Source: a virus
Taxonomy: Duplodnaviria > Heunggongvirae > Uroviricota > Caudoviricetes
DNA: 13,798 nt
Virus record (IMG/VR): IMGVR_UViG_3300029511_000167
Strand: one strand, 5' to 3'
Within the stretch, counting starts at the first letter, position 1. Each line of letters begins with the position of its first letter. Shown here piece after piece: positions 6,514 to 10,485 of this stretch. The notes under the pieces are model-generated. The model saw nothing but the letters and a program-made list of their open reading frames with translations, ran no database searches and had not been told where the DNA came from. The translations under genes and the position numbers were made by a program.

Positions 6514-7092
6514 CTATTTTAATTCTCCCTGCATGAAATGTTTTCTACACAAAGAAACGTATGATTCATTTCCACCCATTTCTATCAGCTCACCAGTTTT
6601 TACAACTTTTCTATTTTTTATTCTTGCGTTAAAGTGCGCTTTTTTTCCGCACCAGCAAATAGTTGGAATTTCTTCAATTACATCTGCAATCTCCATCAGG
6701 CGCTTTGATCCTTCAAACAAGTGTCCTGTAAAATCAGTCCGAAGTCCATAGCAAATAACGGTGATCTGGCATTCATCTACAATTCTTGCCAAATTATCAA
6801 TATCTTCTGTTTTTAAAAACTGTGATTCATCGACAATGATAACATCATATTCTTTTAGCATATTCTTTGGGATTGTAGCACAGCGTAATCTCCCAAAAAA
6901 GCTTTCGATTGTTTCACACTCAGCACTTAACCCAATTCTTGAAACTATTTTTGTTTCTCCATCCCTGTTTTCAATTGCTGGTTTTAATAAGAGAGGGTTT
7001 TTCCCTTTTTCCAGGTAGTTATACCGCACCATTAAAGCGTTCGCTGTTTTTGAACTTCCCATTGCTCCGTATCTAAAGTATAATTTTGCCAT
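6514..7092 (-). CDS. tdk: Thymidine kinase (TK1-like, bacterial type)
   Basis: LYFRYGAMGSSKT P-loop, SRIG, IIVDESQF, CYGLRTDF.G.LFEGS, zinc ligands CWC and CRKH, and GGNESY. Confidence 0.97.
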   Translation of the reverse strand: MAKLYFRYGAMGSSKTANALMVRYNYLEKGKNPLLLKPAIENRDGETKIVSRIGLSAECETIESFFGRLRCATIPKNMLKEYDVIIVDESQFLKTEDIDNLARIVDECQITVICYGLRTDFTGHLFEGSKRLMEIADVIEEIPTICWCGKKAHFNARIKNRKVVKTGELIEMGGNESYVSLCRKHFMQGELK

Positions 7093-7214
7093 ATTATTTT
7101 CCCTTTCTTTTTATAAGTAACCAGCCGTAAAACCACATACCTTTAGGTGTGTGGATACACGGCGGCCATAAATACTCTGCCTAACGGCAGGTGGTGCCGT
7201 ACTACGTTGCACTG

Positions 7215-7280
7215 TTACCATACAACTGTTCCGACCTCAACTCGACAATGATAGAAGGGCTTTTTGATCATCTTCTTCAT
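7215..7280 (-). pseudogene. 21-codon ORF with a strong SD; probably a passenger gene truncated near the left end
   Basis: TAGGAG-ATTAAAGAG-ATG, MKKMIKKPFYHCRVEVGTVVW*; follows the 7298 gene at operon spacing. Confidence 0.45.
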
Positions 7281-7297
7281 CTCTTTAATCTCCTATG

Positions 7298-7615
7298 CTA
7301 TTCCATAATTCCTCTTGTACCTAACTGAATTTTAAATGATTTAAAATTTTCTGCTCCATGCTCTCTCATAAACTCATAAGGTCTATCCGGCATCTCTGAA
7401 GTATAATAGATATAAAAGATACCTTTAAACCCTAACTGCTTTAATATAACCGATATGTCATAGTTATTTAACTCTGAAGCCTCTATAAATAAATCCATGA
7501 TTACAGGATATTGCTTTATTTCATCTAATGTAACATTTCTGATGTTCCTTGCTTCTCCGAAGTTACTATGAATTTCTGCTATGTTATATCCGGCATCTGT
7601 AAAAGCCTCAGCCAT
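7298..7615 (-). CDS. Hypothetical soluble protein (passenger)
   Basis: 105-aa ORF whose start overlaps the upstream stop by 8 nt, suggesting coupling; no family recognised. Confidence 0.7.
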   Translation of the reverse strand: MAEAFTDAGYNIAEIHSNFGEARNIRNVTLDEIKQYPVIMDLFIEASELNNYDISVILKQLGFKGIFYIYYTSEMPDRPYEFMREHGAENFKSFKIQLGTRGIME

Positions 7616-7928
7616 ATAAAGTTCCGACTAACATTAACATACAGTCAAAACCAACAAGCATCAAAGTTAAAACAGTAACTACTGCAGTCCACCCAACAAA
7701 CTCTCCTAAGTCTCTATCATCCATATAGAATGCAGTACAATACGTTCTTACAGGTACTAACAACAGTATTGAATGCAATGCTATTATTCCACCCATGATA
7801 ACACTACCACTTGATGTCAACCCAAAATTACTTGCAGTTGAATATCCAATGCTGAAAGCTACAATCACTGCTAATACAACAGTTAACAATGTTATCTTGT
7901 CATATGTACTTGCTTTTATCTTTCCCAT
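7608..7928 (-). CDS. Hypothetical three-helix membrane protein (passenger)
   Basis: TAAGGAG SD; three hydrophobic stretches (about aa 12-30, 41-59 and 77-104). Confidence 0.75.
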   Translation of the reverse strand: MGKIKASTYDKITLLTVVLAVIVAFSIGYSTASNFGLTSSGSVIMGGIIALHSILLLVPVRTYCTAFYMDDRDLGEFVGWTAVVTVLTLMLVGFDCMLMLVGTLYG

Positions 7929-7940
7929 TGTTGCTCCTTA

Positions 7941-8048
7941 CTAAATAAAGTATTTCACACAAGCTAATATTATACTACCTGCTACAATCGCAACTGCTAC
8001 AGTTACTAAAGCATATATTGCTAAAATAGCTGTTGCTATCAGACTCAT
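7941..8048 (-). CDS. 35-aa single-helix hydrophobic peptide (passenger)
   Basis: Translated by hand: MSLIATAILAIYALVTVAVAIVAGSIILACVKYFI*. It ends TAG TAA directly at the next gene's SD; no clear SD of its own. Confidence 0.55.
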   Translation of the reverse strand: MSLIATAILAIYALVTVAVAIVAGSIILACVKYFI

Positions 8049-8049
8049 T

Positions 8050-8195
8050 CAACCGCAGGTATCATGACCCAAATATCGTAGTATCCATTTCTGGACACTA
8101 AGTCTGGTGAACCATTTAACAGAAGCAAGTTCATGGAACATGAACTTCAGCTTCGCAGAAGTTGCCCTAGACCTTTATGGTCTAGGGTAGTTCAC
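8050..8195 (+). ncRNA. Orphan TnpB omegaRNA (reRNA)-like scaffold at the element right end; 5' boundary approximate
   Basis: Stems 8079-8087/8092-8100, 8122-8135/8139-8154 and 8163-8173/8179-8189. GTGAAC (8107-8112) is complementary to the terminal GTTCAC (8190-8195), as in omegaRNA pseudoknots. Confidence 0.7.
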
Positions 8196-9535
8196 TCATT
8201 ATAAAAATATTCTCCTACAATACTGAAGGATTCTATAATATCGGTTCCAGAGATTCGCTGTAAATTGATTGATTCAATTTCTCCAAGATTGAATTGATTG
8301 ATCCAATCAGATAGTTTATCGATGTTGCTTGGTGTATAGGCTAAGTATAACTTACCATGAATGTTTTTTACCAAAGAATACTTATTTACAATTTTATTTA
8401 GCATAGCCGTTATTTCAGTTTCATTCATTTCTTCATCATCGGCTTCTAGTACATCCAGTATGTAGTCTGAATCGCTTAAATCAATCTTTTTAAAAGATAA
8501 ATGATACCGGTACTCTTCAATAAAAGAACTTGATTCATCCATGTAAAAGCCAGCATTTTGTATAGCGAAATAGTTGATCTCATGAAACAAATTTTCAATA
8601 AGATATGATGGGTTTTGATTTATAACTTCTTTTCCGATTACCTTTTTTATTTCTTTTGCATTTTGATTTAGAATTCTATTGTTTTGATGTCGCTGATTTA
8701 CTATTGTGGATGTTTCAGTTTCAATATTTAATGTATTGCAAATATCTGAAAAATAATACTCAACCAATGTTCCGCACGTTTCCACAAGAGAAGCATCTTC
8801 TTTCATTGTTGACATTGCATGCATTAAATGCTTAAAACAATCATCCAAAAAGCGAAGCTTATTTTTTAATCCTTCTTCTACGGGAATAGAATTTTCTTCC
8901 TGTTTCTTGTCTTCAGTTATAATATTTTCTGGCTTTAGATAAAAGGAAATACTGTCTATTCTATTGTCCATTAATTGAATTGTGAGTTTTCCCTTTACAT
9001 TAAAATCCGAAAATAATGTTTTTAATAGCTTTAAAACATTTTGTTCATAAATAATCGAATAGTTACCCGTTCCATTTCTTTTTTCTAAAATAAAACCATA
9101 ATCTTTCAATCGTTGTATTTGCTGGGCATATTTCCTCTTTTCAGTTTCCTTTTCTGAATGAAATGAAAATTTAGGACTAATCAAACATGCGATTTCCACA
9201 TAAATAAGTCCACTTTTCTTTAAATAGAATTCTTTCAAAAAGCCAAGATAATAATGATCTAAGAATTCTTGAAAACTTCTCTTGTATTCAGCCACAGCTT
9301 CTATTAAATAACGTTCCGGGTGCAGTTCAGAATCGCTTCTATTTTTATTAAGACCCGAAATAGTCTCATTTGTCGCTGATTTTAATATTGATATAGATTC
9401 TTTGTATTCATATTTTTTTGATTTTAGAAATTCTTGGATTTTTAATTCTAATTCATAGATATCCTTTTCCCAATTTTTTTCTTCTAAATCTTCATTTTTA
9501 ATTCTTAAAAAAGCTCTTTCTAATAAATCTTTCAT
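8192..9535 (-). CDS. Hypothetical protein, 447 aa
   Basis: TAAGGAG SD and a long ORF; no motif recognised. The last sense base and the TGA stop are supplied by the IS right end. Confidence 0.85.
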   Translation of the reverse strand: MKDLLERAFLRIKNEDLEEKNWEKDIYELELKIQEFLKSKKYEYKESISILKSATNETISGLNKNRSDSELHPERYLIEAVAEYKRSFQEFLDHYYLGFLKEFYLKKSGLIYVEIACLISPKFSFHSEKETEKRKYAQQIQRLKDYGFILEKRNGTGNYSIIYEQNVLKLLKTLFSDFNVKGKLTIQLMDNRIDSISFYLKPENIITEDKKQEENSIPVEEGLKNKLRFLDDCFKHLMHAMSTMKEDASLVETCGTLVEYYFSDICNTLNIETETSTIVNQRHQNNRILNQNAKEIKKVIGKEVINQNPSYLIENLFHEINYFAIQNAGFYMDESSSFIEEYRYHLSFKKIDLSDSDYILDVLEADDEEMNETEITAMLNKIVNKYSLVKNIHGKLYLAYTPSNIDKLSDWINQFNLGEIESINLQRISGTDIIESFSIVGEYFYNE

Positions 9536-9556: not shown

Positions 9557-9979
9557 TTAGTCATTTTCTTTATACTCTTCTACTTTAATTCCATTTTGTA
9601 TCATCCAATCAGCCACTAAATGTCTATGGCAAAAATCCTCTGGGCGTTCGTAACATAACAATGCAATATGATTTATTTTGCTTTGCCAAATTGGAACATT
9701 TTCTTTTTTGATTTCTTCTTGTTTGGTTTCAGGCAATAGAGAAATTAATTCTTTGACTGTTGTATAAGGATCTTTGTCTTTTAGTACTTGTTCATGAAAA
9801 CATCTAATATAATATTCATTATCATGCGTTTCCTTCCAAATCTTGAAAAAATCATATTTGGGTGCTAATTTTTTATATTCCAGGCCATGATAATAAGCTG
9901 GAGATTTTCCGCAAATTGCAATAATTTCAATATCTTTCGGCAGTTTTCGTACTTTGCCGAAATAGCTCGTATAAATCAT
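9557..9979 (-). CDS. DUF488 family protein
   Basis: MIYTSYF, KLAP, Y...F...VL and ALLCYE.P..FCHRHLVA motifs; ATGA overlap with the upstream gene. Confidence 0.85.
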   Translation of the reverse strand: MIYTSYFGKVRKLPKDIEIIAICGKSPAYYHGLEYKKLAPKYDFFKIWKETHDNEYYIRCFHEQVLKDKDPYTTVKELISLLPETKQEEIKKENVPIWQSKINHIALLCYERPEDFCHRHLVADWMIQNGIKVEEYKEND

Positions 9980-10476
9980 AATTTTTCTCCTTTTAAATAA
10001 TCAACAATATTCTTATACTCTCCATCTATTTTCAGCCGTGTTTTCTCTCCTGGATATAGAATGAGAATATTATCGCAGACTTCTTCTGCCATTGCAACTG
10101 CAGCTGCATCTGGAACTGCAGAGCAGATGCCAAACACTTTTTTTCCTTCCAGTGCTGGAAATTCATGTTTCAAAAAATTCTGAATCGACATCTGATAATG
10201 TGTGGTATTTTTTGTTGAAAATCGCTTAAGCAGATCAAGATCAACACCGATGTATGCCGGATACTTTTCAAACAGAAAAACTTGCTGAGCCATATAGCAG
10301 CCCAGATCCAGAATCGTAGCATCCGCAGGCGCAATTTGTCTTAGCAGCTCATAATTTTCCAGAAATCCAAGAAAATCGCCACCAATCTCACAATCTTCCT
10401 GTTTAAAAAGAGCTTCTTCCTTGTTTTCATGAATCTTTTCATACACTTCCTTTAATAATTCATCATAGTTTTTCAT
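9976..10476 (-). CDS. Small class I SAM-methyltransferase-like protein
   Basis: ILDLGC motif-I-like segment followed by YIGVD. TAGGAG SD is best spaced to ATG 10476 (alternative 10482). Confidence 0.6.
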   Translation of the reverse strand: MKNYDELLKEVYEKIHENKEEALFKQEDCEIGGDFLGFLENYELLRQIAPADATILDLGCYMAQQVFLFEKYPAYIGVDLDLLKRFSTKNTTHYQMSIQNFLKHEFPALEGKKVFGICSAVPDAAAVAMAEEVCDNILILYPGEKTRLKIDGEYKNIVDYLKGEKL

Positions 10477-10485
10477 ATTCATCTC

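Follow-up and report, generated by a model that had tools for sequence, protein, structure and literature searches.

A non-autonomous ISC element with protein-coding DNA inside its omegaRNA gene in a gut phage-like island

We analysed a 13,798-nucleotide stretch of tailed-phage DNA (Caudoviricetes; IMG/VR record IMGVR_UViG_3300029511_000167), referred to here as the window, and within it a 1,081-bp segment at positions 7115-8195. The segment lies between a 447-codon open reading frame (ORF) of no assigned function (8192-9535, minus strand) and the thymidine kinase gene tk (6514-7092, minus strand; Pfam TK, 7e-43), and the G+C content of the region forms two richer blocks around a low-GC centre. 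It is bordered by transposon-like ends, retains both halves of an omegaRNA on the minus strand (8195 to 8049 and 7266 to 7170), and holds a 782-bp cassette with three ORFs between these halves. Sequence comparison with relatives confirms the segment as a genuine, precisely bounded and non-autonomous ISC element, the IscB-type kind of IS200/IS605 transposon.

Ends and insertion site of the element

The ends carry subterminal imperfect hairpins in place of terminal inverted repeats. With the plus strand taken as the top strand in the sense of the transposase TnpA, the left end (LE, 7115-7169) comprises a 14-nt spacer, the guide AAAA (7129-7132), a hairpin immediately 3' of it (7133-7154; 9-bp stem, 4-nt loop) and an outer stem (7121-7128/7159-7165). 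The recognition part of the right end (RE, 8158-8195, plus strand) consists of the guide GAAG (8158-8161), a hairpin that the guide precedes by two bases (8164-8188; 10-bp stem, TTTAT loop) and the cleavage tetranucleotide TCAC (8192-8195). Folded as single-stranded DNA, the LE region (7111-7170) reaches -12.4 kcal/mol (z -3.76) and the RE region (8150-8196) -10.9 kcal/mol (z -4.18), values that none of 200 shuffles equalled in either case. The target motif TTTAT (7110-7114, plus strand), which contains the TTAT at 7111-7114, flanks the element and lies outside it; on the minus strand it reads as an ATAAA directly 3' of the element.

Relatives of the element share this arrangement. Counting the window, all nine distinct sites start with GTGAACTAC on the IscB strand and continue beyond the element into ATAAA. 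This motif (TTTAT on the top strand) thus abuts one end at 9/9 sites, and since the flank on the other side is unrelated, there is no target duplication. It is likely that ATAAA is the target-adjacent motif (TAM) of the IscB of this family. The stems of the LE hairpins differ among the copies with their pairing preserved, and the guide paired with TTAT is AAAA or AAAG in the relatives.

An earlier note, made from the letters of the window, had described a transposase-less element of the IS200/IS605 superfamily and bounded it at 7114/7115 and 8195/8196; these bounds hold. Both hairpins, the AAAA and GAAG guides and the TTAT and TCAC motifs are present where it placed them, except that the RE hairpin spans 8164-8188 and not 8163-8189. 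The IS608-type pairs it proposed (AAAA with TTAT, GAAG with TCAC) recur in the relatives, which is a conservation of motifs and suggests, at that level, the same guide and cleavage logic. Its orientation, with LE at 7115 and RE at 8195 on the plus strand, is right, because it fits both the ISC termini in the relevant passage of Kapitonov, Makarova & Koonin (2016, PMC4810608) and the RE that bounds the HEARO-like region in that of Meers et al. (2023, bioRxiv 10.1101/2023.03.14.532601). Other copies with the same ends, which the note had suggested looking for, exist at the eight further sites with common terminal motifs. Homology breakpoints also fall at or close to the proposed borders: among metagenome contigs, family copies begin to match at 7108-7110, where no fewer than three different flanks adjoin them on the outside, and a copy in run X19 (record 19) stops matching at 8195.

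When 7115-8195 is cut out in silico, the upstream ORF still ends in ..YFYNE with a TAA stop replacing TGA, and 20 nt including a ribosome-binding site precede the tk ATG. The first bases on the IscB strand (G TGA) here substitute for the A TAA of the target (8192-8197 with 7110-7114), as they do in the phage contig L006 (3966-3971), where the same replacement of one stop by another is found at the element junction. At three of the nine sites, whether or not the element is present, the upstream gene ends in the same last residue and an in-frame stop: TGA stands for TAA in the window and in L006, and TAG for TAA in L010, whose junction falls within the stop codon (TA|G versus TA|A). In AT-rich phage DNA, ATAAA targets are expected to coincide often with TAA stops.

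IscB-bearing relatives, the interrupted omegaRNA and the cassette

We compared the element with related copies in uncultivated gut-phage contigs, where eight other sites carry relatives of 1,602-1,709 bp with the same ends. A 26-mer of the 5' omegaRNA module found L006, in which the same sequence opens a full HEARO RNA (106.4 bits against a gathering score of 83). It is followed by a 419-aa ORF with RRXRR (2e-55) and HNH domains, which identify it as IscB, then by a hairpin like that at 7133-7154 of the window, and then by ATAAA. A 35-mer of the 3' module matched nine viral contigs, with an IscB ORF (419 or 432 aa) right behind it in every one, and a 24-mer of the 5' module matched 17, ten of them new (three with IscB, one cut by the contig end and six stubs). 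All 12 full relatives encode IscB rather than TnpB or TnpA. An exact 32-mer of the RE had no match in the viral contigs, while a 21-mer of the omegaRNA had none in genome contigs and one among metagenome contigs, L007.

The window copy lacks iscB: no ORF within 7115-8195 gives a Pfam hit, and the alignment agrees. No window ORF hits the Y1_Tnp or TnpB families. Whereas the relatives continue from the 3' module into the iscB ribosome-binding site and ATG, the window continues directly into LE, with the omegaRNA end ..GAGTATTTAT running straight into the LE outer stem and with both iscB and its ribosome-binding site missing. The LE itself is 92% identical over 48 nt to that of an IscB-bearing element in L036.

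The omegaRNA has been interrupted at its centre. Its 5' module, which is also the RE (8049-8195, minus strand), contains the P1 helix, a terminal hairpin and the 5' strands of the pseudoknot and of a long-range helix. This part (8195 to 8049) gives the sole Rfam hit of the region with E below 1 (HEARO RF02033, 26.8 bits, E 0.0034, gathering score 83), folds as RNA with a z of -5.81, and shows 83-91% identity to 11 IscB-linked loci in BLAST matches of 76-78 nt. An extra hairpin of about 40 nt (8125-8164) lacks a counterpart in the phage relatives and sits at an optional hairpin of the Rfam consensus. The 3' module (7170-7266, minus strand) contains the 3' strands of the long-range helix and pseudoknot together with terminal hairpins; its BLAST matches to the omegaRNAs at 11 IscB-linked loci cover 68-97 nt at 85-88% identity. 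In alignment with eight IscB-linked copies, a central domain of about 72 nt, two hairpins in the Rfam consensus, is exchanged for the 782 bp of the cassette (8048 to 7267, minus strand), whose bounds (7266/7267 and 8048/8049) are the points where ordinary family copies diverge in metagenome contigs. The long-range helix that closes the central domain keeps 8 of 11 pairs across the two window halves, with one double change from A-U to G-C relative to the phage copies.

Cassette and flanking operon share one reading direction, so the two would be transcribed together. The first base of the cassette is the start of the ATG of a 35-aa hydrophobic ORF (7941-8048, minus strand), a putative gene that is identical in L007. 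Next is a 106-aa multi-pass membrane ORF (7608-7928, minus strand) preceded by AAGGAG, which belongs to a cluster of 19 near-identical proteins in 106- and 109-aa forms, and whose exact form is present on 63 contigs; family searches gave just sub-threshold matches, for instance Phage_holin_2 at E 0.012. It overlaps a 105-aa ORF (7298-7615, minus strand) that equals just the last 105 residues of a protein of about 239 aa, and which is therefore a 5'-truncated gene fragment. Longer forms (P0020, 239 aa; P0022, 231 aa; P0023, 369 aa) have an N-terminal signal with ..LLVGC and 134 residues that are missing from the window ORF. We take ..LLVGC to be a lipobox and the protein of about 239 aa to be a likely lipoprotein. 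From the sequence, an internal deletion seems to have fused the end of the membrane gene to a point midway through the lipoprotein gene.

None of the cassette ORFs has a significant Pfam or PHROGs match, P0020 retrieved just unnamed Bacillota clusters from the ESM Atlas, and protein searches with the cassette ORFs returned just near-identical relatives (87-94%), which two of the three ORFs have. Contig counts (63-70 for cassette proteins, 20 for the flank protein) were not used as a sign of wider spread of the cassette, since they carry a gene-length bias. The depths in RNA library X13 (4-6 over the cassette, 41-185 over the ends) were rejected as a sign of expression; they derive from contigs, and the ends are multi-copy. 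A joint from 7266 to 8049, skipping the 782 bp, occurs in runs X14, X15 and X6, and was likewise rejected as a cargo-free form, as such joints most likely belong to ordinary omegaRNAs with the 72-nt centre.

These comparisons alter how the interior is to be understood. A protein-coding parent with the same ends exists, as the earlier note supposed, and encodes IscB and an omegaRNA instead of tnpA and tnpB. ORFs foreign to the transposon do lie between the ends, the third as just a 3' fragment of a lipoprotein gene, but some 245 nt of what had been read as unrelated passenger DNA are omegaRNA. The proposal that cargo had taken the place of tnpA/tnpB fails: the cassette sits inside the omegaRNA gene, and in the alignment iscB is missing by a separate, clean deletion.

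Six of the contigs found with the 24-mer, from large phages, hold stubs of the same omegaRNA, which are of two types. In one, the stub has 87 nt, and after it come a ribosome-binding site and a signal-peptide ORF that is at least 814 aa long; in the other, about 135 nt are retained, broken within the central domain, with unrelated DNA after. A search of four of the six records found neither the 3' module nor LE elsewhere. At another relative, L035, whose contig ends inside iscB, the flank GCTCAGTTGGTAGAGC.. located 25 nt before the element start resembles a tRNA D-arm, and ARAGORN finds no tRNA there.

Mobility and alternative explanations

Taken as a whole, the locus is probably an ISC derivative that has lost IscB, carries a cassette inside a split omegaRNA and is served by a TnpA in trans. 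The full-length parent would have undergone two separate events, the deletion of iscB and the exchange of the central omegaRNA domain for the cassette, and a later internal deletion would have cut the lipoprotein gene short. By analogy with related transposons, a Y1 TnpA acting in trans is likely. Supplied from elsewhere, it would excise the top strand between TTAT| and TCAC| and reinsert it 3' of TTTAT by single-strand peel-and-paste, with the guide AAAA pairing with the TTAT of the flank and GAAG with the TCAC of the element tip. In the full-length relatives, IscB would work with an omegaRNA that takes its guide from the flank 5' of GTGAAC; a cut beside ATAAA in the empty site would follow, and recombination would restore the element.

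The availability of a TnpA is plausible. G001, the 155-kb phage record to which L006 also belongs, holds an apparently intact IS605 (L017, C1:62790-66149) with a tnpA of 136 aa and a tnpB of 379 aa. The tip of its RE has 12 nt (GGGTAGTTCACT) in common with the window RE, and its tnpA-upstream side reads TTTTTAT|AAG, as in the window. The left end of this IS605 is undefined, with no stable hairpin there (-4.7 kcal/mol). Both of its flanks hold local repeat copies (..AAAAAGACCTC..; ..CTTTTGAAAT.TAAGATTTGAC..).

Copies of the cassette-bearing locus are found in gut samples. The window stretch is present in 20 public runs of 9 studies. Record 19 of run X19 (676 nt, depth 3.6) carries 7865-8195 with one mismatch (99.7% identity) and then 345 nt unlike the window, and the window flank at 8267-8517 is uncovered in that run. 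The human-gut contig L007 (1.6 kb, coverage 1.65) matches 7666-8133 at 99.8% identity within different surrounding DNA, and departs from the window at 8166. In X18, 7538-8044 is present with other DNA to the left of 7538.

L007 has further features of its own. Its extra omegaRNA hairpin contains a 36-nt insert (469-504) that is also present in RNA run X13 at a depth of 175. The first bases of its different RE tip could pair with the 3' strand of P1 through G-U pairs. Upstream, at 547-922, lies an LE-like hairpin 93% identical to that of L014, together with 160 nt that match the region of the broken tnpA in L018 at 70% identity.

Several observations weigh against the probable reading given above, and several of them suit a rival of the same origin, namely that the element is a dead relic, fixed in the island after the loss of iscB, its omegaRNA destroyed by the cassette, immobile, and with ORFs decaying without a role. 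The central domain that the window lacks is present in 11/11 IscB-linked copies compared and in the Rfam consensus, the HEARO score is 106.4 bits in L006 versus 26.8 bits in the window, far under gathering, and the long-range helix has lost one of its pairs; for these reasons the omegaRNA may be dead. The truncation of the third ORF speaks for decay. Mere stubs of the same omegaRNA occupy one site each in two further groups of three phage contigs (L029/L040/L042 and L030/L032/L044), which suggests that decay of such elements is common. The locus is identical in runs of several studies, and the empty-site joint from 7114 to 8196 was not seen in contigs of eight runs, a result that is uninformative either way as contigs drop rare variants. 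Searches of the genome and viral contig collections gave no relatives of the 447-aa flank gene. TnpA is intact in one, broken in one and absent from seven of the nine IscB-bearing phage records searched. The evidence for a second cassette-bearing site consists of the single X19 contig and L007, with their low depth and coverage, and the RE tip of L007 differs from 8166 outward. Set against death and immobility are the intact guides, hairpins and cleavage motifs of both ends, and the compensatory pair that connects the two omegaRNA halves. A long immobility is also hard to square with a cassette-bearing RE that adjoins different DNA in X19 and L007. On balance we hold the relic to be possible, if rather doubtful.

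It is improbable, by our estimate, that the interrupted omegaRNA still works, as a natural two-piece guide like a crRNA/tracrRNA pair for an IscB made elsewhere. A transcript of about 1.1 kb would have to fold around the 782-nt insert, or two pieces would have to rejoin through the long-range helix and pseudoknot. The predicted guide segment (8196-8211, minus strand), presumably 16 nt long, would lie 5' of the scaffold, beyond the border of the element, where the 447-aa gene has its last codons. Its position is predicted from the scaffold start together with the account of guides in the relevant part of Meers et al. (2023). That such an RNA would load IscB and cut the empty site, with the last 16 nt of the upstream gene as guide and ATAAA as TAM, is unlikely because the conserved centre is missing; some chance is left, because the closing helix, both pseudoknot strands and the 3' hairpins are retained. 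If it did so, the element would act as a homing cassette guided by RNA, driving its passenger genes into TTTAT sites that are still empty in giant phage-like islands of the gut; it would also be a living model of how a one-piece omegaRNA could split on the way to Cas9.

There is a slim chance that the locus is a composite, in which two separate ISC copies came to lie around resident membrane and lipoprotein genes and were later reduced by deletions, one to a 5' omegaRNA stub and the other to a 3' stub with LE. 5' omegaRNA stubs before unrelated genes do exist, at the two stub sites just named, and full-length cassette genes exist elsewhere. However, the two parts in the window are exactly complementary in omegaRNA coordinates, with just the self-contained central domain missing between them, and they have the compensatory pair in common. 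Removing 7115-8195 as one unit, moreover, brings the two genes back into a tight junction, with the protein end unchanged.

We regard it as very improbable that an IS608-like tnpA/tnpB element exchanged its transposase and nuclease genes for cargo here. The guide and cleavage logic fits, and the tnpA-tnpB IS605 of G001 offers the same RE tip in a related phage record, but its left end is not matched, the sequence between the ends of the element aligns, on the opposite strand, to omegaRNAs of the IscB type, and 12/12 full relatives carry IscB. Finally, that nothing was inserted and the locus holds native structured intergenic RNAs and small island genes would agree with the unobserved empty site, but is already contradicted by the recurrence of both end modules with other flanks and other insides, and has practically no weight.

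The neighbourhood adds several observations of its own. On the minus strand, the window encodes an odd set for one operon-like run: a Macro domain protein, an EVE/ASCH-like protein, a Thg1-like tRNA-His guanylyltransferase and a CpXC protein, as well as the thymidine kinase, DUF488, MBOAT and a MaoC-like dehydratase. In an X6 contig, 330 bases of the window (10032-10363) are swapped for 333 others inside a 168-aa ORF (9976-10482), a variable segment in islands that are otherwise near-identical. A scan of the region for promoters and terminators gave a number at chance (7 sites versus 6.5 expected), among them a sigma-70-like site at 8264-8235 on the minus strand (TTTACA, 18-nt spacer, TATTAT; 10/12), inside the 447-aa gene and about 40 nt upstream of the omegaRNA start. 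ARAGORN found no tRNA in the region and Rfam no hit at the gathering threshold. Among GenBank phages (INPHARED), a distant search matched just tk; the tk relatives L001-L004 (59-62% identity) and the weak L005 (37%) are neither syntenic nor close, and were not used.

Comparison with known systems and significance

To our knowledge, IS200/IS605 and ISC elements are regarded as minimal, comprising a nuclease gene, a guide RNA and two ends, and their known non-autonomous derivatives, the palindrome-associated transposable elements (PATEs), are free of genes. Word searches of open-access text and a 2026 OMEGA review, within the portions available, turned up no account of passenger genes carried by IscB or IS200/IS605 elements or located inside an omegaRNA, which is no proof of their absence. 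The window copy indicates that ISC ends can frame foreign protein-coding DNA, and that this DNA entered the gene of the guide RNA rather than the slot of the nuclease. The form with the cassette persists in the gut of animals and humans, as samples from several studies show, and seems to occupy more than one site. It offers a substrate for asking how much cargo TnpA tolerates and, of relevance to compact IscB editors, whether the scaffold of an omegaRNA can bear a large insertion or a split in the central domain. It also bears on how phage-borne OMEGA elements decay or get co-opted. Were it a fossil, it would still document a decay path of OMEGA elements in large phage-like islands.

IS608 of Helicobacter pylori is the model for the TnpA mechanism: a guide tetranucleotide adjacent to a hairpin pairs with the cleavage tetranucleotide, and the target is TTAC. 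The window element would be read in the same way, since its motifs fit the guide and cleavage rule at both LE (AAAA/TTAT) and RE (GAAG/TCAC), as a conservation of motifs, and it lies 3' of its target on the top strand. It differs in its target, TTTAT and not TTAC, in its IscB-type rather than TnpB-type partner, and in having no tnpA in cis. Autonomous IS605 elements differ further, as neither tnpA nor tnpB lies between the ends of the element studied here.

IStrons provide another case of added functions. They are fusions of a group I intron with IS605-type ends in the description drawn on here (part of bioRxiv 10.1101/2023.11.20.567912), and in that account resemble the window copy as IS200/IS605 elements with a large structured RNA and other functions on the same DNA. 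Rfam, however, finds no intron in the window, where the extra DNA codes for protein and lies within the guide RNA scaffold.

PATE-like derivatives are closer. They often encode omegaRNAs, according to the relevant section of Meers et al. (2023), and like the window copy they are non-autonomous, have kept the ends and the omegaRNA, have lost the nuclease gene, and would need TnpA and a nuclease in trans. Unlike the window copy, with its three ORFs inside the RNA gene, PATEs are defined without protein-coding genes.

The nearest system is ISC itself, with IscB and its omegaRNA (OMEGA). ISC elements have 5'-GT termini, insert upstream of ATGA, ATCA or ATAA and have termini in common with IS605 counterparts, as summarised in the passage of Kapitonov, Makarova & Koonin (2016) on ISC ends; Meers et al. 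(2023) add, in the parts that concern iscB, that its upstream HEARO-like region is bounded by the RE and that iscB is rarely close to tnpA. The window copy differs in lacking iscB and in an omegaRNA that is interrupted by 782 bp of coding DNA and scores below the Rfam gathering threshold. It agrees in its 5'-GT on the IscB strand, its subterminal hairpins, an apparent omegaRNA start at the RE, the absence of tnpA in cis, and an insertion directly upstream of an ATAA-type site without duplication. Its close relatives, 83-92% identical in the modules, are regular IscB-bearing members of ISC.

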